Below, one piece after another: positions 38,765-62,548 of a stretch of 64,000 nucleotides of DNA; the stretch's first letter is position 1; each line of letters begins with the position of its first letter. Under the pieces are notes generated by a model, which had not been told where the DNA came from, ran no database searches, and saw only the letters and a list, made by a program, of their open reading frames with translations. Source of the stretch: Candidatus Levyibacteriota bacterium (GTDB lineage: Bacteria > Patescibacteriota > Microgenomatia > Levybacterales > GWA1-39-11); assembly GCA_039738415.1 (NCBI GenBank), contig JBCLLY010000006.1, positions 1,814-65,813 on the forward strand, written 5' to 3'. Both the position numbers and the translations under genes were made by a program.

Positions 38765-39376
38765 ATGGCAAAAAAATCGACAAATAAAAATTTTGATATA
38801 AAGCACCTGCTAGATACATCCGGTTCTTATAAAAATCTTATTTACGGAGCTGTAACTGTATTAATACTTGCAGTTATAGTTTTTTTGGGCATAAGAACTA
38901 TTTCTCAAAATAAGGGAGATATAAATGGAGACGCTGTTGTGGTTAAAGAAGAAGAGTCAATATATGAGGTTTCCAAAGGAGATACTCTCTGGAGTATATC
39001 TGAAAAAGTATATGGCACGGGATTTAATTGGCAGCTCATAGCTGATACAAATAAATTGGAGGATCCAAATAATATTGAGGCTGGTACTAAGCTGTCAATT
39101 CCTAAATTAACTCCTACAGTAACAGAGGAAGTTGAAGTGGGTGAATCTGAACAAGAAGCGAAAATCGAACCGGTGCAGGACAAAGACACTGAAACCGAAA
39201 TATCTAAGGACGATAAAAAAGCTACTGAGTACGTTGCTAAGTCTGGAGATAACCTTTGGAAAATAGCAGTAGAGCAGTATGGAGATGGTTATAAATGGGT
39301 AGAAATTGCAAAGGCAAACAGTTTGGTAAATCCAGACATTATTCATGCAGGTAACAGCTTTGCAATTCCAAGATAA
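38765..39376 (+). CDS. LysM-domain protein (two LysM repeats, N-terminal TM anchor)
   Basis: Two copies of the LysM pattern (YEVSKGDTLWSISEKVYG...IEAGTKLSIP and YVAKSGDNLWKIAVEQYG...IHAGNSFAIP). Confidence 0.85.
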   Translation: MAKKSTNKNFDIKHLLDTSGSYKNLIYGAVTVLILAVIVFLGIRTISQNKGDINGDAVVVKEEESIYEVSKGDTLWSISEKVYGTGFNWQLIADTNKLEDPNNIEAGTKLSIPKLTPTVTEEVEVGESEQEAKIEPVQDKDTETEISKDDKKATEYVAKSGDNLWKIAVEQYGDGYKWVEIAKANSLVNPDIIHAGNSFAIPR

Positions 39377-39594
39377 AGAGGTATATTTAGTAAATATAAT
39401 TCTTTTAGTTCGGTATTGATTGTAAAAATACCGCTCTTATGGATTGTGTCAAGGCGAATTTAAAAACGTCTCTTTAATATAATCACTTGCGAGGTTAGTA
39501 CACCGTCCGTCAGAAACGCAAGCTTGCTTTGTGGGCAGGGCAGTATGTCACATCCCCCGCCTGCAATCGCCTGTGCGGTGGTAGTTCAGTGGTA

Positions 39595-39692
39595 TCCCGT
39601 TAAGCAGATGTAGTGTAGTGGTAACACGCCTCCTTCCCAAGGAGGAAACCGCGGGTTCGAATCCCGTCATCTGCTCACATTGCTTAACGGGA
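39595..39692 (+). mobile_element. 98-bp unit: 11-nt perfect inverted repeats (TCCCGTTAAGC / GCTTAACGGGA) enclosing tRNA-Gly(CCC)
   Basis: Left arm 39595-39605, right arm 39682-39692. The unit sits exactly where the outer tRNA is interrupted. Mobility is inferred, not shown. Confidence 0.4.
39604..39675 (+). tRNA. tRNA-Gly (CCC)
   Basis: Acceptor GCAGATG/CATCTGC, D arm GTGT-AGTGGTA-ACAC, anticodon arm CCTCC-TTCCCAA-GGAGG, T arm GCGGG-TTCGAAT-CCCGT, discriminator T. Length 72 nt, no encoded CCA. Confidence 0.9.
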
Positions 39693-39851
39693 CCAAGGAA
39701 GAGGTCGCCAGTTCAAATCTGGTCCACCGTTCTAGCATTGGCGGGCAGGCCAAGGTGTACCCTCCTTCGTATCGTTTTGACGAGACTACTGAAGGGCAAG
39801 GAAGTGAGTTGGATTCCCGCACTCGCTCTGATTACAGTTTTATAAGCAGGA

Positions 39852-39897
39852 AATCTCACAGTCAGACTTTCAAAATCAAAAGCCTGACTGTGAGATT
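39852..39897 (+). other. 14-bp perfect-stem hairpin (AATCTCACAGTCAG / CTGACTGTGAGATT) with an 18-nt loop
   Basis: Lies at the 3' end of the GC-rich tRNA-Gly region, upstream of the pyrG promoter. Possible terminator or processing site. Confidence 0.55.
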
Positions 39898-39952
39898 GGG
39901 ATAAGAAAATTTTTCTCATTGACACGTTTTGGTCTATTTGGTAGTATAAATC

Positions 39953-41623
39953 GTGCCGCTCAAGAAAAACAAAACAAAATATATTTTTGTTTCCGGAGGA
40001 GTAATCTCGGGAATTGGAAAAGGACTTACCGCATCTTCAATAGCATTTCTTCTCAAATCAGCAGGTTACAAAGTAGCCCCCATTAAATTTGAAAATTATC
40101 TCAACTTGGATGCCGGGACAATAAATCCAATAGAGCATGGCGATCCATTTCTATGCGAAGACGGAACAGAGGCGGACATGGATATAGGATCATACGAAAA
40201 ATTCCTAAATGAAGATATGGGAAAAGAGAATTTCGTGACAATGGGATGCATCTATCAAACAGTAATTGACCGTGAACGCCGTTTTGAATATAACGGTGAG
40301 GACGTTGAAGCAATTCCCCACATAACTGATGAAATAACCTCCAGAATCAATCATCTGGCAAAAGTAAAGGGGGCAGATATCGTTATTATCGAGCTTGGGG
40401 GAACGGCAGGCGAGTATCAGAACATTTTTTACTATGAGGCATCCAGAATCATGACTCTGAGAAATCCCGGAGACGTTATTCACGTTCATGTAAGTTATGT
40501 TCCAACCCCTTCACATCTTGGAGAACCTAAAACGAAACCCACACAGCTATCAGTAAGAACCCTTAATTCAATGGGAATTCAGCCTGATTTTATTATTGCT
40601 CGCTCTGCACGATACCTTGATCAAAGAAGAAGAGATAGATTTGCGCTTTTCTGTAATATGCATCCTGAAGATATCATTTCAAATCCGGATTTAAAAAGTG
40701 TCTACGAAATTCCACTGATTTTACATAAGCAGGGGCTTGAAAAAAGAATTTTTAAAAAACTTGGACTTACTCCAAAGGCTCCAGTTCTTGCGCCTTGGGA
40801 AAAATTAATAGAAAAAGTGAAAAGTAAAAAAGGAAAAAGCATAGAGATTGCAATTGTAGGAAAGTATTTTGGGACGGGAGAATATCAGCTGAGAGATTCG
40901 TATGCTGCGCTTTTAGACGCAATAGAGCATGCTTCGTGGAGTGCTGACGTTACGGTCATAACGCGCTGGGTGAATGCGGAGAAAGTCGAGAAAAATGGGG
41001 CTGAAAAAACAATCGGAAAACCTGACGGAATCATCGTGCCAATCGGATGGGGGGAAAGAGGTTCCGAAGGCATGATACTGGCAGTAGAGCATGCACTGGA
41101 GAATAAAATTCCGTATCTTGGGCTATGCTACGGTATGCAGCTTGCAGCAGTTGCTTTTGCCAGAAGCGCTATGGGTTGGAAAGACGCGAATACGACTGAA
41201 AATGATAAGAAGACGAAGCATCCGGTAGTGCATATGATAGAAAATCAAAAAGAATTGATGGAAAGGCGTGCTTATGGAGGCACTATGAGGCTGGGTACAT
41301 GGGATGCTCTTGTTAAAAAGGGGACACGGGCATATGAAATTTATAAAAAAGCTAATGCTTTCATCCGTGGGAAAGACGGGTTAACTTCTGAAAGACACAG
41401 ACACAGATATGAATTTAATAATAAATTTGCTCCGGAATTTGAAAAAGCAGGGTTGGTAATTTCTGCCCGCTCTGTCGTTGAAAATTTAGTTGAAATTATC
41501 GAGCTGCCGAAAGAAAAACACCCCTTCTTTATGGGAACACAGGGACATCCTGAGTATAAAAGCAGACCGTTGAGCCCCCACCCCCTATTCGTTGAGTTTA
41601 TAAAGGCAGCTTCAGCTCAATAG
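39953..41623 (+). CDS. pyrG: CTP synthase
   Basis: KYIFVSGGVISGIGKG N-terminus and the GATase domain motif GLCYGMQ. GTG start. A TTGACA hexamer lies at 39920-39925. Confidence 0.95.
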   Translation: MPLKKNKTKYIFVSGGVISGIGKGLTASSIAFLLKSAGYKVAPIKFENYLNLDAGTINPIEHGDPFLCEDGTEADMDIGSYEKFLNEDMGKENFVTMGCIYQTVIDRERRFEYNGEDVEAIPHITDEITSRINHLAKVKGADIVIIELGGTAGEYQNIFYYEASRIMTLRNPGDVIHVHVSYVPTPSHLGEPKTKPTQLSVRTLNSMGIQPDFIIARSARYLDQRRRDRFALFCNMHPEDIISNPDLKSVYEIPLILHKQGLEKRIFKKLGLTPKAPVLAPWEKLIEKVKSKKGKSIEIAIVGKYFGTGEYQLRDSYAALLDAIEHASWSADVTVITRWVNAEKVEKNGAEKTIGKPDGIIVPIGWGERGSEGMILAVEHALENKIPYLGLCYGMQLAAVAFARSAMGWKDANTTENDKKTKHPVVHMIENQKELMERRAYGGTMRLGTWDALVKKGTRAYEIYKKANAFIRGKDGLTSERHRHRYEFNNKFAPEFEKAGLVISARSVVENLVEIIELPKEKHPFFMGTQGHPEYKSRPLSPHPLFVEFIKAASAQ

Positions 41624-46692: not shown

Positions 46693-49341
46693 TTACTCGG
46701 AAAGTGAGTTAATAAATGACTTTGTTATTTTAAATGGAACAGATTTTACTAAGTCCTGAAGACAGAGAATAATAAAAGATGCAGTAATAGGCAATATCCA
46801 AATACGCGGATCAAGCGGCGCTGTTGAGAAAACATTTCGTACAGGCGTGTAAAGAATTATGAGTGTTGCAGATATGGATAGAATTGTTGCCATAACAAGG
46901 TATTTATTTACAAAGGGAGAGCGGGTCAAAACATTTTTTCTAAAAGAACGGAAAGTGTAGACATTTACTATTTCAAGTAGAATTATAGTAACGAGTGCTG
47001 CAGTTCTTGCAACCTCAACGCTTTGACCCAGAACATTGAATACAACATAATATATGATAAGCGTTGCTGTGGCTATCAAACTTCCCAGCACGATAATTAC
47101 CCCTAAGTGAGTTTTGCTTAAAATTGAAGATTTTCTCCTGGGTGGATAATTCATAATATCTTTTGAGGTGGGGTTTAGGCCAAGTGTCATTGCGGGTATA
47201 TTGTCAGTTACCAGATTTAGAAATAGAATCTGAAGCGCTAAAAGAATCGGAGCTTCCCAGCCCAGAACCGGAGACAAAAGAACGCCTACGAAAATTATAG
47301 TAAGCTCTGCGAAGTTATCACACAGTTGATAGGTTACAAATTTTCTGATGTTATTAAATATAGTTCTTCCTTCCCTTATAGCGTTAACAATAGTGGCAAA
47401 GTTATCGTCTTTAAGGGTTAAATCCGATACCGAGCGCGAGACATCTGTTCCATTTTTTCCCATTGCTACACCAATGTGTGCTTCTTTTAGCGCCGGCGCG
47501 TCATTTACTCCATCTCCCGTCATGGTTACAATTTCGCCTTGTTCTTTAAGAGCCCTTACAATTCTGAGTTTATGCTCCGGATCTACTCTCGCAAAAATCG
47601 CGGTTTCCATTACTGCAGTTCTAAGCTCCTCATCTGACATATCATTCATTTCTTTTCCCATAAGAACATTGCCTGTTATTCCTACCTGCTTACCAATTGC
47701 AACGGCTGTTTCGCTATTATCACCAGTTATCATTTTTACTTTAATTTGAGCTTTTCTGCAGGTTTCAATTGCTTCTTTTACCTCTTCGCGGGGTGGATCT
47801 TCCAATGCGACAATTCCCAAAAATATAAGATTATCCTCAGTATAATTTTTATCACCGGAGTTTTTCTTAAAGGCCATAGAAAGAGTTCGAAAAGCTTTGG
47901 CTGCAAGATGTTTGTTTATTTCGATAAGCTGTTCCCTTCTTTCCCTTGTAAGCTTTATTGCTTTTCCATTCTCAAAGATTTCAGAACAGTTTTCGAGAAT
48001 TATTTCAAAGGCGCCTTTTGCGTAGACATATTCACCGCGTTCTTCCTTGACCAAAATTGACATCATCTTGCGCTCTGAGCTAAAAGGGGTTTCATTTAAC
48101 CGTTCGGCTTTGTAATCTTCAGTAAATAATTTAGACTTTGCACCGAGAATTAAAAGCGCACCCTCCGTTTGGTTGCCTATAACATCATACTCGTGGTTCT
48201 CTCTTAATTTTTCAATCCTTGAATCATTGCATAGTATTCCGGTTTTGATAATTAGCCCGAGCGCCTCATTGCTTGCTACGTCAATTGGCTTTTTATTTTG
48301 ATAAATTCCTCCTTCTCCTTTGTGCCCGGTTCCTGTGACAGAATATACCTCATCTCCCGATAGAATACCCCTTACAGTCATTTCTCCTACGGTAAGAGTT
48401 CCTGTTTTATCTGTACAAATAACGGTTGTTTCGCCGAGCGTTTCTATAATAGACATACGATTTACTATCGCGTTTTGCTTTGCCATACGAGACGCACCGA
48501 CTGCAAGAGTAGTTGTCAGAACAACAGGAAAACCCTCAGGAAATGCCGATACGGAAAGAGCAATCACCAGAATTAAAATCTCAGTCATGTAACCGGTAGA
48601 AATTTCCGTAGCCCGGGAAAGCATTATCGCGCCGGTTGCAACGGATGTAACCAGTGCAATTCCAACCATAACTTTTGAAATACTATTTACTTTGTCCTGA
48701 AGAGGCAGATCTTTTTCAACGGTAGAAATTAATGCAGCTATTTTTCCAAATTTAGTATTCATTCCTGTATGTATAACTTTTGCATAGCATTTACCCCTTA
48801 CTACAAAAGAACCCATATAAAGAGTATTTTTCTCATCATACTTTTCCTCAGAGGTTACTTGAATCTTTGGAAGGTCATCTGATTCTCCGGTAAGAATTGC
48901 CTCACTTACTTCCACATCCTCACCATCAATTAAAATACAGTCAGCAGGAACCCTTTCGCCGCTTCGAAGCACCAATACATCTCCAGTTACTATTTCACCC
49001 GAGGCAATCTCTTTCTCTTTTCCACCCCGGACTGCCATGCTTAACGGGAGAATCATATTTTTCAGGGCGCTGATTGCTTTTTCAGCGCGATATTCTTGTA
49101 TAAATCCGGTCGCAATAACCAGTACAATTACCCCGATAATTGCGTATCCTGTTACATCTTTTCCAACAAAAAAGGAAACAATTGCTGCCGCAAGTAACAA
49201 ATAGAGTATAAGATTTTTTCTAACTTGACGGAAAAGTATTTTATATGGTGATGTCTTTGAGATATCTGTTATTTCGTTTGGTCCAAATTCCCTTAGTCTC
49301 CTTAACGCTTCAATATCTGAAAGACCGACTATTTTACTCAT
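46693..49341 (-). CDS. cation-transporting P-type ATPase (type II, Ca2+-ATPase-like)
   Basis: DKTGTLT phosphorylation site and the TGDGVNDAPAL hinge. The ATG at 49339-49341 (MSKIVGLSDIEALRRL) is preferred over the longer ORF. Confidence 0.85.
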   Translation of the reverse strand: MSKIVGLSDIEALRRLREFGPNEITDISKTSPYKILFRQVRKNLILYLLLAAAIVSFFVGKDVTGYAIIGVIVLVIATGFIQEYRAEKAISALKNMILPLSMAVRGGKEKEIASGEIVTGDVLVLRSGERVPADCILIDGEDVEVSEAILTGESDDLPKIQVTSEEKYDEKNTLYMGSFVVRGKCYAKVIHTGMNTKFGKIAALISTVEKDLPLQDKVNSISKVMVGIALVTSVATGAIMLSRATEISTGYMTEILILVIALSVSAFPEGFPVVLTTTLAVGASRMAKQNAIVNRMSIIETLGETTVICTDKTGTLTVGEMTVRGILSGDEVYSVTGTGHKGEGGIYQNKKPIDVASNEALGLIIKTGILCNDSRIEKLRENHEYDVIGNQTEGALLILGAKSKLFTEDYKAERLNETPFSSERKMMSILVKEERGEYVYAKGAFEIILENCSEIFENGKAIKLTRERREQLIEINKHLAAKAFRTLSMAFKKNSGDKNYTEDNLIFLGIVALEDPPREEVKEAIETCRKAQIKVKMITGDNSETAVAIGKQVGITGNVLMGKEMNDMSDEELRTAVMETAIFARVDPEHKLRIVRALKEQGEIVTMTGDGVNDAPALKEAHIGVAMGKNGTDVSRSVSDLTLKDDNFATIVNAIREGRTIFNNIRKFVTYQLCDNFAELTIIFVGVLLSPVLGWEAPILLALQILFLNLVTDNIPAMTLGLNPTSKDIMNYPPRRKSSILSKTHLGVIIVLGSLIATATLIIYYVVFNVLGQSVEVARTAALVTIILLEIVNVYTFRSFRKNVLTRSPFVNKYLVMATILSISATLIILYTPVRNVFSTAPLDPRIWILPITASFIILCLQDLVKSVPFKITKSFINSLSE

Positions 49342-52262: not shown

Positions 52263-52466
52263 GAGAATGTATATTTTAACATTTTGAGCCTATTCTAGCC
52301 AAAAGTCAAATAAATTTGAATTTATTTGCAATGCTACGATTTGGCACAAAATCCTAAAGTCGGGTTGGAATGAGTTAAAAAAGAAGCCTTTTTCTATAAG
52401 TACCTATTGTCAATCTCAGCTTGCACTGAGCTTGCTCGCCTCGCTGAGTCGAAGCGGGCCAAAGTG

Positions 52467-52540
52467 TGAGCCGACTGGGACTCGAACCCAGAACCAAAAG
52501 CTTAAAAGGCTTTTGCTCTACCAAATTGAGCTATCGGCCC
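52467..52540 (-). tRNA. tRNA-Lys (TTT)
   Basis: Sense strand GGGCCGA-TA-GCTC...GAGC-A-AAAGC-CTTTTAA-GCTTT-TGGTT-CTGGG-TTCGAGT-CCCAG-TCGGCTC-A. No encoded CCA. Confidence 0.9.
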
Positions 52541-53483: not shown

Positions 53484-53555
53484 GGCCCGTTCGTCTATCG
53501 GTTAGGACGCTAGACTTTCACTCTGGCAAGGGGGGTTCGACTCCCCCACGGGTCA
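53484..53555 (+). tRNA. tRNA-Glu (TTC)
   Basis: Acceptor GGCCCGT/ACGGGTC, anticodon arm CTAGA-CTTTCAC-TCTGG, T arm GGGGG-TTCGACT-CCCCC. No encoded CCA. Confidence 0.9.
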
Positions 53556-53621
53556 CATTTTAATCAAGGGGAGAAGAAGTTTACCCTGCTGTGCCCGCCT
53601 CTGCAGGGAGCTTGTGCAAGG

Positions 53622-53640
53622 GAGTCCCAGTCGGCTCACA
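53622..53640 (+). repeat. 19-nt copy of the tRNA-Lys 3' end (GAGTCCCAGTCGGCTCACA), att-like and inverted relative to the gene
   Basis: Exact reverse complement of 52465-52483 (T-loop to 3' end of tRNA-Lys plus 2 nt). Marks the left edge of the accessory region. Confidence 0.8.
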
Positions 53641-58204: not shown

Positions 58205-58945
58205 GCAAAGTTTAAATCCTATGATAGTGGAATAGTCATTGCTAATTGGCTGTCAACAAAATACACAATTCAGTTTATGGGAGCTTGGGAACAATTACAT
58301 AATCCGAATTTTAATCTTATTGAATTCCATAAGATTAAAAGTGAAGCTGGATCAAATGGATTTATTGTTTCATCCTCATTTTGGATCAAACAAACTAAGG
58401 CAATTGGAATTATCTCAAGTGCAGGTAGATATGGGGGAACTTATGCCCATAAAGATATTGCTTTTGAGTTTGCAACCTGGCTTTCTCCAGAGTTCAAACT
58501 TTTTCTTATTAAAGAATTCCAAAGACTTAAGGCAGAAGAAAGTGAGCGGCTTGAATTGGGTTGGGATTTGAAAAGAACATTGGCAAAAATTAATTACCGT
58601 ATTCACACAGATGCGATTAAAGAGCATCTCATCCCACCAAAAATTTCTCAAAAATCAACTCAAATCATTTACGCCACTGAGGCAGATGTATTAAATGTAG
58701 CTTTGTTTGGAATAACAGCAAGAATATGGCGTGATCAAAATCCAAAAAGGGAGGGGAACATCCGAGACTATTCTACTGTAGAGCAACTGGTAGTACTCTC
58801 AAACCTTGAAGGAATGAATGCGGAATTTATCCGACAAGGACTATCTCAAAGCGCGCGACTAGTAAGACTTAATATAAATGCAATTTCTCAAATGAAGTCA
58901 CTTCTTGGAAACCCAGCGGTGAAAAAGTTAGAAAAACAAAAATAG
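58118..58945 (+). CDS. KilA-N domain-containing protein
   Basis: ISLTDMAKF...GRYGGTYAHKDIAFEFATWLSPEFKLFLIKEFQRLK, typical of the KilA-N family often found near restriction-modification loci. Confidence 0.8.
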   Translation: MKSKKIEVKGIVIATFSKNEKDYISLTDMAKFKSYDSGIVIANWLSTKYTIQFMGAWEQLHNPNFNLIEFHKIKSEAGSNGFIVSSSFWIKQTKAIGIISSAGRYGGTYAHKDIAFEFATWLSPEFKLFLIKEFQRLKAEESERLELGWDLKRTLAKINYRIHTDAIKEHLIPPKISQKSTQIIYATEADVLNVALFGITARIWRDQNPKREGNIRDYSTVEQLVVLSNLEGMNAEFIRQGLSQSARLVRLNINAISQMKSLLGNPAVKKLEKQK

Positions 58946-58948
58946 TAT

Positions 58949-58997
58949 CTCAGCCTCGACTAGACCGCCGAGTCTAGGCGGGCCAGCCACCGGAAAC
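58949..58997 (+). repeat. junction repeat J, copy 2
   Basis: CTCAGCC-TCGACTAGACCGCCGAGTCTAGGCGGGCCAGCC-ACCGGAAAC. Begins 4 nt after the KilA-N stop. Confidence 0.85.
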
Positions 58998-59794: not shown

Positions 59795-59812
59795 ATGGAG
59801 TATGTATAAATG

Positions 59813-59870
59813 AATTCGCATACCAGCCTCGACTAGACCGTCGAGTCTAGGCGGGCCAGCCACCGGAAAT
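59813..59870 (+). repeat. junction repeat J, copy 3
   Basis: AATTCGCATACCAGCC-TCGACTAGACCGTCGAGTCTAGGCGGGCCAGCC-ACCGGAAAT. Confidence 0.85.
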
Positions 59871-62234: not shown

Positions 62235-62490
62235 CTGCGGGCTAAAGATGGTGATTTCTTTATTTCTGATTGGTTGAGAAATAGGAATACAGTTGAATTC
62301 ATTGGTATATGGGAAAAGTTGAATAATCCGAATTTTAATTATGGCGAATTTGCCATAATTAAAAGTCAGGTAGGATTAAACAGCTACAAGATTAGTGTTA
62401 AAGAGTGGGTCGTGTAATACTTAATCTTACACAATCTCTCAAATGAAGTCACTTATCGGGAACCCAGCAGTGAAAAAGTTAGAAAACCGG
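62148..62490 (+). pseudogene. KilA-N gene remnant (mosaic with an internal deletion)
   Basis: The first 29 codons are identical to the 58118 copy. These are followed by a divergent KilA-N N-domain (WLRNRNTVEFIGIWEKLNNPNF), a premature stop at 62415-62417, then the out-of-frame C-terminal tail (QMKSLIGNPAVKKLE). Confidence 0.7.
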
Positions 62491-62548
62491 AATTCGTAAT
62501 CCAGCCTCGACTAGACCGTCGAGTCTAGGCGGGCCAGCCTCAGGAAAG
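62491..62548 (+). repeat. junction repeat J, copy 4
   Basis: AATTCGTAATCCAGCC-TCGACTAGACCGTCGAGTCTAGGCGGGCCAGCC-TCAGGAAAG. Lies immediately upstream of hsdR. Confidence 0.85.

Follow-up and report, generated by a model that had tools for sequence, protein, structure and literature searches.

The window analysed here is a stretch of 64,000 nt from the genome of a Levybacteria-like bacterium of the candidate phyla radiation (CPR). Between the gene for a LysM protein (38765–39376) and pyrG, the gene for CTP synthase (39953–41623), the window contains an intact tRNA-Gly(CCC) gene that is bracketed by a perfect inverted repeat and lies between two halves of a second, incomplete tRNA-Gly gene. We refer to this arrangement as a tRNA nest and number its layers from the outside, so that layer 3 is the intact inner gene and layer 2 consists of the two outer halves (Table 1). 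Genes for DNA polymerase X and tRNA-Asp lie further upstream. For comparison we used 80 pyrG-anchored loci from GTDB species representatives of Levybacteria/Microgenomates-type CPR genomes, with individual loci cited by L-numbers and the sequence types of tRNA-Gly(CCC) cited as A, B and C. The gene order tRNA-Asp, LysM, tRNA-Gly(CCC), pyrG is kept in 54 of the 80 loci.

The inner tRNA is the only functional-looking gene of the nest. ARAGORN calls it as tRNA-Gly(ccc) at 39604–39676, and its match to the Rfam tRNA model RF00005 covers the full length (1–71, at 39604–39675) with 73.3 bits against a threshold of 29 (E = 4e-14), in agreement with the original prediction of a tRNA-Gly(CCC) at this place. 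It forms a canonical cloverleaf with D, anticodon and T arms. The identity elements of bacterial tRNA-Gly are U73, C35, C36, G1–C72 and C2–G71, and the inner tRNA bears G1–C72, C2–G71, the anticodon CCC and the discriminator U73. Position 3–70 is A–U and not G–C, as it is in the sole tRNA-Gly(CCC) of L066. Rfam searches over the region, both at gathering thresholds and at E ≤ 10, returned only the inner tRNA and hairpin noise, and ARAGORN detected neither a tmRNA nor a two-piece tmRNA in the part of the window flagged by the original prediction. A phage origin of the inner tRNA received no support from viral_contigs, where the D arm and anticodon arm of type C had no match.

The perfect 11-nt inverted repeat described in the original prediction was recovered by a repeat search, which extends the arms to 12 nt (39595–39606 and 39681–39692), 100% complementary and 74 nt apart. 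By a rough calculation, about 1e-4 perfect 11-mer repeats within some 20 nt of both tRNA ends would be expected by chance. A search for the arms throughout the 64 kb, also proposed earlier, found the nest and a single further copy of the 11-mer TCCCGTTAAGC, at 49039–49049 on the minus strand, inside an open reading frame (ORF) for a P-type ATPase-like protein of 952 aa. About 0.03 copies are expected by chance (our own calculation), and we treat this third copy as a coincidence. Neither the 11-mer nor the shorter strings GCRAAGCTT and AAGCTT are enriched in the window.

Both halves of the second Gly-type tRNA, as they had been proposed to lie outside the repeat, have close counterparts among intact genes of relatives. 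The 5' fragment is matched by L012 (Table 1), and CCAAGGAAGAGGTCGCCAGTTCAAATCTGGTC (39693–39724) of the 3' half is 94% identical to positions 34–65 of the intact L006 tRNA (E = 1e-8 by blast). The acceptor 3' strand CCACCGT pairs with GCGGTGG of the 5' fragment, with G1–U72 as one of the pairs. Compared with the intact tRNAs of L012 and L006, the outer tRNA lacks 13 nt (GAATGCTTCCTTC, about positions 21–33/34), which is the size of the gap that had been predicted, and has thereby lost the D-stem 3' strand, the anticodon-stem 5' strand and positions 32–34. With neither a complete D stem nor a complete anticodon stem and anticodon, the outer halves do not qualify as a working tRNA, and the outer unit has no Rfam tRNA match even at E ≤ 10. 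The NCC anticodon originally assigned to the outer molecule was correct as to the Gly type; comparison with intact relatives specifies it as CCC. The intact relatives that the original prediction had suggested looking for were found at the same syntenic site in L012, L006, L032 and L050. Only 9 nt separate the outer 5' fragment from the inner tRNA, and the predicted fold of the 154-nt nested unit was reproduced as a nested cloverleaf-like structure of −61.2 kcal/mol (z = −5.05).

The arrangement is real and not an assembly artefact, since a second public record (L081) has the 576-nt intergenic region without a single difference and the same nest is present in a strain from an independent sample (L111, with a LysM protein 96% identical to that in the window). 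The nest thus appears in three records, which settles the concern raised earlier about an assembly error. The window and L111 differ by three substitutions in 331 nt, including C2>T in the outer 5' fragment (acceptor) and A>G in the TATAAT box upstream of the nest. The repeat arms are unchanged, and the inner tRNA is identical in the window, L081 and L111. The intergenic region upstream of the LysM gene is conserved between the window and L111 at least as well as the nest. With only three changes in 331 nt, and with adjoining intergenic sequence equally quiet, the two-strain comparison speaks neither for nor against selection on the outer halves.

The nest appears to hold more layers than the outer pair, as a third, older tRNA-Gly layer is recognizable outside it (layer 1). 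Its 5' fragment GCGAGGTTAGTACACCG is 100% identical to positions 1–17 of the intact L003 tRNA (blastn-short), and hairpin inserts that follow GGTA in the D loop, comparable to the one in the window, are seen in L005, L006, L009, L001, L002, L054 and L085. The degenerate continuation GGCAGTATGTCACATCC agrees with the type-B sequence GGTAGTATGCTACCTTCC at about 14 of 19 positions and is homologous to the upstream half in L032. Layer 2 itself is enclosed by two hairpin arms that pair with each other (39556–39567 with 39736–39749) in the minimum free energy (MFE) fold. The left of these arms also occurs in L032, the right one is found downstream of the tRNA in L032, L007 and L050, and L071 has the same hairpin in closed form with no tRNA inside. 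Further downstream, CAAGGAAG is a direct repeat by the repeat search and has a homologous counterpart, GGCAAGGAAGYGAGT, in L050 and L012; the fragment at 39797–39828 to which it belongs probably represents the 3' counterpart of layer 1, if not of a layer that is older still.

Table 1. Features of the tRNA nest and its flanks in the window.
Feature	Position	Strand	Basis or remark
TATAAT box, putative −10 of ancestral tRNA promoter	39478–39483	+	Read directly; 5 nt upstream of outermost fragment
Layer 1 (oldest recognizable), 5' fragment, positions 1–17 of type-B tRNA-Gly(CCC), GCGAGGTTAGTACACCG	39489–39505	+	
Insert of about 33 nt in layer-1 D loop, palindrome AACGCAAGCTTGCTTT	39506–39538	+	Repeat search
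Layer 1, degenerate continuation (about positions 19–35), GGCAGTATGTCACATCC	39539–39555	+	By-eye alignment to type-B tRNAs
Hairpin Y left arm, layer-2 cassette, CCCGCCTGCAAT	39556–39567	+	Matches Y 5' arm consensus CCCGCCTGAATG
Layer 2, 5' fragment, positions 1–20 of type-A tRNA-Gly(CCC), GCGGTGGTAGTTCAGTGGTA	39575–39594	+	95% identical to L012 positions 1–20
Inverted repeat, left arm, TCCCGTTAAGC	39595–39605	+	Repeat search; overlaps G1–C2 of inner tRNA
Layer 3, intact type-C tRNA-Gly(CCC)	39604–39675	+	ARAGORN, Rfam RF00005
Inverted repeat, right arm, GCTTAACGGGA	39682–39692	+	Repeat search; abuts outer 3' half directly
Layer 2, 3' half, positions 35–72 of type-A tRNA-Gly(CCC)	39693–39730	+	T arm intact
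Hairpin Y right arm, layer-2 cassette, CATTGGCGGGCAGG	39736–39749	+	Matches Y 3' arm ..GGCGGGCAAG
Decayed start of older 3' half, from anticodon position 35, CCAAGGTGTACCCTCC	39750–39765	+	By eye, CCAAGG start; weak
Further decayed tRNA-Gly 3' fragment, CAAGGAAG..GTGAGTTGGATTCCCGCACTCGCTC	39797–39828	+	By-eye alignment, type B GCGAGTTCAATTCTCGTACCTCGCTC
19-bp near-perfect hairpin between nest and pyrG promoter-like site	39852–39897	+	Repeat search, MFE fold

The hairpin at 39852–39897 precedes a promoter-like site of pyrG (TTGACA..TAGTAT, 39919–39947). It is not followed by a run of T and was not called as an intrinsic terminator; it could be the 3' end or a processing site of a nest transcript. 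A single large conserved noncoding RNA spanning 39470–39900 was also considered, as the MFE fold of this segment nests well, and was rejected because the intergenic content differs in every relative. In another part of the window, three copies of a 58-nt element (58939–58996, 59812–59869 and 62490–62547; 88–100% identical) consist of a hairpin CCTCGACTAGACCGnCGAGTCTAGG followed by CGGGCCAGCC, and two of them lie within a longer repeat of 116 nt. This element is a candidate for a sequence of the repetitive extragenic palindrome (REP) kind, a terminator or a mobile element.

Debris, nests and turnover of tRNA-Gly in related genomes

All intact tRNAs were compared with the loci by blast and the results inspected, partly by eye. 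Debris of tRNA-Gly lies beside the intact gene in about 17 of the 54 syntenic loci, and in about two thirds the tRNA is bare. The break points of the fragments cluster at the D loop (about positions 13–21) and at the anticodon (34–36). Upstream 5' fragments comprising positions 1–20 occur in L005, L006 (twice) and L009, each 100% identical to the tRNA of its own genome, and 5' halves that reach the anticodon occur in L001, L002, L024, L028, L032 and L007. There are 3' halves starting from CCAAGG in L013 and L082, a 3' fragment of T arm and acceptor in L061, and 3' ends of tRNA-Gly in L012, L041 and L050. The fragments that match their own tRNA (L005 2111–2165, L006 2312–2454, L009 2076–2170) are of type A in L006 and of type B in L005 and L009, and the spacers that follow them (..CTTGAAATTGCnnnGCAAT..AAGCTTGCC..) are homologous between these genomes. 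That the fragments follow their own tRNA while the spacers are homologous suggests concerted change of fragment and gene.

Two further remnants were observed at other places. Just after the tRNA-Glu gene of the window (53484–53556), the segment GAGTCCCAGTCGGCTCAC (53622–53639) is 100% identical to positions 58–75 of the tRNA-Lys at 52466–52540 on the other strand, and is preceded by a GC-rich hairpin (CCCTGC..GCCCGCC..GCAGGG); it seems to be comparable debris beside a different tRNA gene. In L041 (443–1708), an intact tRNA-Gly is followed by about 1.2 kb with an ORF of 308 aa and then by a 30-nt exact copy of a tRNA-Gly 3' end, which resembles an attachment-site (att-type) duplication and would point to a different kind of integrating element.

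The architecture of the window is not unique. A metagenome scan with a pattern running from the inner anticodon loop to the type-A 3' half returned a single match, L082. Its nest is built like that of the window, but from a different outer allele (GCGAGAG/CTCTCGC) and a different inner tRNA, and its arms are CCCCGC/GCGGGG. Nests also occur at tRNA-Asp: in L022 (1898–2104) and L032 (1703–1910) a complete tRNA-Asp(GTC) sits in the anticodon loop of another tRNA-Asp, and this outer tRNA-Asp carries an extra conserved hairpin, GGAACGTnAAACGTTCC, at 26/27. Serial invasion is suggested by the outer 5' half in L022, whose sequence agrees with that of the inner tRNA of L032 at every position (100% identity). 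In every nest seen, the inner and outer tRNAs share the same anticodon.

Sequence comparison of the 54 loci makes it evident that exchange of the tRNA-Gly at this fixed site far outpaces the divergence of the genome. Pairwise tRNA-Gly identity is unrelated to pyrG identity (Spearman −0.06), and genomes whose pyrG proteins are 85–94% identical have tRNA-Gly genes only 61–76% identical; L006 and L010, for instance, share 94% identity in pyrG and 72% in the tRNA. Since the sequence type of the tRNA does not track pyrG identity, replacement of tRNA-Gly would appear to be frequent.

An element of predicted GIY-YIG nuclease, hairpins and tRNA

At the site syntenic with the nest, several relatives carry a small ORF with a GIY-YIG domain (L028, L054, L083, L100, L103, L106 and L108). 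In L028 and L054, two hairpins and a GIY-YIG ORF of 91–102 aa (Pfam PF01541, E about 1e-13) are placed between an outer 5' half and the intact tRNA. The same layout is seen at other tRNAs, namely tRNA-Glu(TTC) in L079 (6060–6497) and tRNA-Asp(GTC) in L013 (580–971), and hairpin sequences differ for each tRNA. The order is thus tRNA 5' fragment, two hairpins, GIY-YIG ORF and intact tRNA of the same identity for Gly, Glu and Asp alike.

A database search found 289 relatives of about 91 aa in Patescibacteria, and genomic contexts were inspected for eight further protein clusters. In all eight, the last 10 or so nucleotides of the ORF overlap the start of an intact tRNA-Gly, whose anticodon is CCC in most clusters and UCC in a Giovannonibacteria group; six of the eight lie directly after a LysM gene, that is, at the locus of the window. 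The stop codon of the ORF (TAG or TAA) is formed by U8-A9-G/A10 of the tRNA (for example L028 2097–2372, L083 1201–1479 and L094 1201–1479), an unusual arrangement for translation, and cleavage by RNase P would consequently leave the mRNA without a stop codon. The only more specific family match of the nuclease was a sub-threshold one to TIGR01453 (NCBIfam), which comprises group I intron endonucleases, and a PDB sequence search found no relative.

The two hairpins upstream of the ORF form a module of about 65 nt, which we call XY. Hairpin X (TCCGCCAAAAG...CATTTTGGCGGA) is followed by hairpin Y (CCCGCCnnAATG...CTTTnGGCGGG), which is approximately the reverse complement of X. An outer tRNA half ending at position 35 comes before the module, and CAAGG (positions 36–40), which doubles as a ribosome-binding site, comes after it. 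Covariation was examined in eleven distinct copies, with 500 shuffles and slid alignments as controls. In the XY fold 94.7% of the cells are paired, and 12 of the 23 pairs show compensatory changes compared with 5.9 ± 1.5 in the shuffles, none of which reached 12, and with at most 5 in the slid controls. This degree of covariation indicates that the two-hairpin module is a constrained structure. Among the 10 Gly-linked GIY-YIG loci or clusters examined, 9 have the module in front of the ORF, the L088 group having only a remnant, AGCGGG. No known Rfam family matched the XY-bearing loci, and among loci lacking an ARAGORN tRNA-Gly we found no tRNA-Gly that contains XY and has no intact copy, as would be the case if XY were an intron.

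An older tRNA-Gly is interrupted by the element either in its D loop or at 35/36 of its anticodon loop. L094, a tRNA-Gly(UCC) locus, leaves no doubt about the position 35/36. In this locus the segment consisting of positions 28–35, XY and positions 36–40 forms a direct repeat on both sides of the nuclease gene and the intact tRNA, with the outer 3' half coming next. L085 has the XY module in the D arm instead. Loci with identical nuclease proteins can differ in the number of XY modules or of elements (L088 1550–1699 versus L093 705–767, and L094 versus L099, about 1549–1640); one of these pairs has one versus two XY modules, and the other has a second nuclease copy after the second XY. Such copy-number differences between strains with identical nucleases suggest that the repeats still recombine.

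The proposed link between this element and the nest goes through hairpin Y. The junction of the right repeat arm with the outer 3' half in the window, CGGGA joined to CCAAGG, is common, in the form CGGG(A/G) joined to C(C)AAGG, to L013, L082, L108, L028 and L054, where it is the junction of the Y 3' arm with the tRNA 3' half. The left repeat arm resembles hairpin Y of L028 (CCCGCTTAAA..TTTAGCGGG), and its counterpart in L001 is a closed hairpin, CTCGTTAAGCttcGCTTAACGTGAG, at the same D-loop site of a type-A fragment. Closed hairpins without a tRNA thus correspond to both pairs of arms in the window, to the inner arms in L001 and to those of layer 2 in L071. As the GIY-YIG ORF is missing in the window and present at the syntenic site in relatives, the window would be a derivative of the element and not a member.

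Possible origin of the nest

These observations lead us to propose, as the probable explanation, that the nest is a nuclease-less, multi-layer scar left by serial replacement of the tRNA by this family of elements, and that only its inner tRNA works. The tRNA-Gly(CCC) locus is best explained as having been overwritten at least twice, with the old copies never wholly removed. Each layer would have arrived as a promoter-less element of the GIY-YIG/XY/tRNA family, either by gene conversion triggered by the nuclease (homing) or by recombination at the hairpins. The predicted nuclease would break DNA in or near the loops of tRNA genes, and repair from an element-bearing allele, or recombination between XY modules, would copy in the element together with a functional tRNA. 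By supplying a complete or completing tRNA copy the element would leave the cell with a working tRNA-Gly(CCC), and the nuclease gene could then decay and be deleted, as in the usual life cycle of homing endonucleases. The residue would be a tRNA between two Y arms, represented in the window by the 11-bp repeat and, one layer out, by CCCGCCTGCAAT and CATTGGCGGGCAGG. A tRNA flanked in this way could result from deletion of the nuclease gene and the inner arms from an XY-nuclease-tRNA-XY arrangement, or from insertion of the cargo into a hairpin loop. The nest may be transcribed from the promoter of the oldest tRNA, with RNase P and 3' processing freeing the inner tRNA and the outer pieces being by-products that have no decoding role. 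The indications of such gene conversion are only indirect, and consist in the decoupling of tRNA type from the host tree and in the variation of copy number between strains.

Of the two readings offered in the original prediction, the first is retained in part. A tRNA-bearing unit does appear to have inserted into and replaced a resident tRNA-Gly, as intact genes of the outer type occupy the same site in relatives and the architecture recurs independently in L082 and in the tRNA-Asp nests of L022 and L032; a one-off 98-bp transposon does not fit, there being no target duplication, no other copy in the window and arms that resemble hairpin Y of a larger element. More tentatively, it is possible that the nest is a fossil of repeated drives by a hitherto undescribed class of CPR tRNA-gene parasites, in which a minimal GIY-YIG nuclease, the XY module and a replacement tRNA form an overwrite cassette similar to a gene drive. 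The insertion targets of such a parasite may be the D loop and anticodon position 35/36 of the cognate tRNA gene as well as its own hairpin loops, and the nuclease might recognize extruded DNA hairpins rather than a sequence.

Several observations weigh against this origin by serial replacement. The window has no GIY-YIG ORF or remnant detectable by tblastn and no match to the full XY module (model R1) at E ≤ 10; it has only single Y-like arms, identified by eye at 39556–39567/39736–39749 and 39595–39605/39682–39692, and its tie to the GIY-YIG element rests on short similarities of arms and junctions and on synteny. The left junction of layer 2 is at the D loop and the right one at the anticodon, so that an additional deletion of 13 nt, or recombination between two hairpin copies, is needed. 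The nested intact tRNA of L028 and of L106 agrees with the respective outer 5' half at every position (100% identity), so that protection of a homing allele from its own nuclease is hard to explain. The nuclease is a bare catalytic domain of 91 aa, and its only more specific family match is below threshold. The perfect 12/12 repeat and the nearly intact outer halves (with one G–U pair) could reflect selection for RNA structure and not recency. The single transcript is likewise a weak point: it is suggested by the lack of room for promoters in the inner cassettes and by the TATAAT box preceding the outermost fragment, but a promoter consensus scan did not call this box and found no good −35, and the −10 is mutated in L111.

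The second of the original readings was a split tRNA-like RNA, formed by outer halves that the helix holds together once the inner tRNA is released. In a wider form of this reading, the outer halves and the 11-bp helix would be kept because the precursor needs them, for example as a natural tRNA scaffold that stabilizes the transcript and presents the inner tRNA to RNase P and RNase Z, or they would stay paired after release of the inner tRNA and mimic an acceptor and T arm with a function of their own. The stable cloverleaf-like fold of the 154-nt unit and the canonical outer T arm would be in line with such a function, as would outer acceptors that are complementary in the window (apart from one G–U) and perfectly so in L082 despite their different sequences. 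In the same direction, the flanking arms of the window and L082 differ by an exchange of T–A for C–G, and the nest is the same in two strains except for one change compatible with U–G pairing. The acceptors of the window and L082, however, match different circulating intact alleles, which speaks for independent invasions and not for compensatory evolution. Nor is the two-half arrangement conserved: relatives keep one half, both or neither, with a 3' half only in L013, a 5' half only in L001, L002, L024 and L028, and a bare tRNA in most loci. In L032 the universal C56 is missing from the outer tRNA-Asp. Of the three substitutions that separate the window from L111, one falls in the outer acceptor, and these two strains differ no more in the intergenic sequence upstream of the LysM gene than they do in the nest. 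The outer unit is without an Rfam match. A split tRNA of the archaeal type would have conserved halves and no intact gene with the same anticodon, whereas here an intact tRNA-Gly(CCC) lies between the halves. No bulge-helix-bulge was seen by eye, no formal scan being made, and in the MFE fold the arms form a plain helix abutting unpaired tRNA remnants. The original idea of a functional split tRNA-like RNA therefore finds no support in the relatives, and we consider such a function unlikely.

A miniature inverted-repeat transposable element (MITE), that is, a 98-bp unit with 11-bp terminal inverted repeats and a tRNA as cargo, mobilized in trans by a transposase recognizing the repeats, would account for the small size, for terminal repeats that are complementary at 12 of 12 positions and for the presence of the same hairpin with and without a tRNA inside (the window compared with L001, and layer 2 compared with L071). 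It seems quite unlikely to us, because the flanks GGTA and CCAAGG lack 13 nt of the target rather than showing a target-site duplication, because the 64 kb have no second copy of the unit and contain the 11-mer otherwise only inside an ORF, and because the arms vary in sequence between nests and correspond to a hairpin that is normally closed and adjacent to a GIY-YIG gene. No transposase was seen beside any nest among the immediately adjacent ORFs, which were the ones inspected, and a transposon blind to sequence would not be expected to pair inner and outer tRNAs of the same anticodon every time. Tyrosine integrases offer another source of tRNA fragments: islands or phages could have integrated in the anticodon or D loop of tRNA-Gly, restored the gene and later been mostly deleted. 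Williams in 2002 reportedly described displaced parts of tRNA genes as a signature of tRNA-targeted integration. In its classical form this signature comprises displaced 3' halves that begin within the anticodon loop, as well as 5' copies that match the restored gene exactly (PMC9897764), and the 1.2-kb segment of L041 with its 308-aa ORF and 30-nt copy of the tRNA 3' end may be such a case. At the nest-bearing loci inspected, however, no integrase or recombinase gene was seen; the neighbours in the window are the LysM protein and CTP synthase, and the inserts measure tens of nucleotides, or about 400 nt with only the 91-aa nuclease, those of the window being shorter than 100 nt. A single crossover would give a hybrid tRNA and one displaced part, not a complete tRNA between both old halves, and we regard integrase scars as highly improbable here. 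As all sequences come from metagenome-assembled genomes in which tRNA segments are common to strains, the nest could in principle be a chimera in which strain variants were joined at conserved tRNA k-mers. Against this, the same 576 nt are found in L081, the independent sample L111 has the nest with three substitutions, analogous architectures appear in many independent assemblies (NCBI, JGI, ENA and Logan), and the junctions contain unique hairpin sequence besides shared k-mers, so that the chance of a chimera is minimal.

If the nest did arise by such serial replacement, the tRNA genes of ultra-small CPR genomes would have to be seen as targets that are invaded again and again, not as static housekeeping loci, and the invader would disarm selection by bringing a spare copy of its target. 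This would explain why syntenic tRNA genes differ by 25–40% at about 90% identity of the pyrG protein, and why tRNA-like debris surrounds many CPR tRNA genes. Programs that find or annotate tRNAs may miss or miscall genes at such loci. The nuclease/hairpin/tRNA module, with about 450 bp, would be compact and testable, and the nest would contribute a bacterial case to the debate on the origin of split and disrupted tRNA genes.

Comparison with known systems

The original statement that no bacterial precedent has been described held up within the literature searched, which yielded no account of bacterial tRNA genes nested in one another, nor of CPR elements that combine GIY-YIG and tRNA. One of the closest parallels is SegB of phage T4, the product of a small GIY-YIG gene that, like the ORF described here, is embedded among tRNA genes. 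By cutting a related genome in its tRNA region, SegB promotes the inheritance of its own tRNA region and flanking markers (PMC2330249). Segmental amplification of tRNA loci driven by SegB, reported in a 2026 paper (PMC13096335), is consistent with the turnover of tRNA types and the tandem copies observed here. Unlike SegB, the present element is located in a cellular CPR chromosome, encodes a predicted catalytic domain of about 91 aa that ends inside the tRNA, lies within an older copy of the same tRNA gene and supplies its replacement, and is accompanied by the two-hairpin palindrome (in 9 of 10 Gly-linked cases); the window has lost the nuclease gene.

Insertions in structural RNA genes of the same group of bacteria provide a second comparison. 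Group I introns interrupt tRNA-Asn and tRNA-Asp of Patescibacteria at 35/36 (PMC13011429), and the element shares with them the phylum and this unusual position (L094). A group I intron was nevertheless rejected as an explanation: Intron_gpI matched neither the window region (E ≤ 10) nor the XY-bearing loci (E ≤ 1), the inserts are only about 65–100 nt long where such introns exceed about 200 nt, and the nucleotide before the insert is C and not U. As a separate intact tRNA is always present, splicing of the insert is not needed. Insertions in CPR rRNA genes that carry GIY-YIG ORFs match no known class of intron (PMC11270868). They resemble the present element in placing a GIY-YIG ORF inside a structural RNA gene, and differ in that they are sparse, affect rRNA genes and have been described with neither a replacement copy nor an XY palindrome (PMC11270868).

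The remaining comparisons concern the architecture of the nest. MITEs are likewise short units bounded by perfect inverted repeats, whereas the nest has no target duplication or dispersed copies and its arms are a hairpin found closed in relatives. Fragments left by integrating elements also lie beside an intact tRNA of the same identity and break in the anticodon loop (PMC9897764); the nest differs from them in its tiny inserts, in the absence of an integrase, in having both old halves flank a complete new gene and in its concentric layers. In archaea, disrupted tRNAs have halves parted by foreign DNA and complementary flanks, and insertion of mobile elements has been proposed as their origin (PMC3293823, PMC3218864). 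The split and permuted tRNAs of Nanoarchaeum and of the Caldiarchaeum model thus share with the window tRNA halves that are parted by foreign DNA and adjoined by complementary sequences. The archaeal halves are functional and are joined at a bulge-helix-bulge by the splicing endonuclease, whereas the window belongs to a bacterium, 13 nt of the outer tRNA are missing and an intact replacement lies in between. Concentric tRNA genes with the same anticodon, and a unit of nuclease, hairpins and tRNA, are described in none of these systems, and we rate the feature in the window as a mobile-element scar in a tRNA gene that points to an element family.

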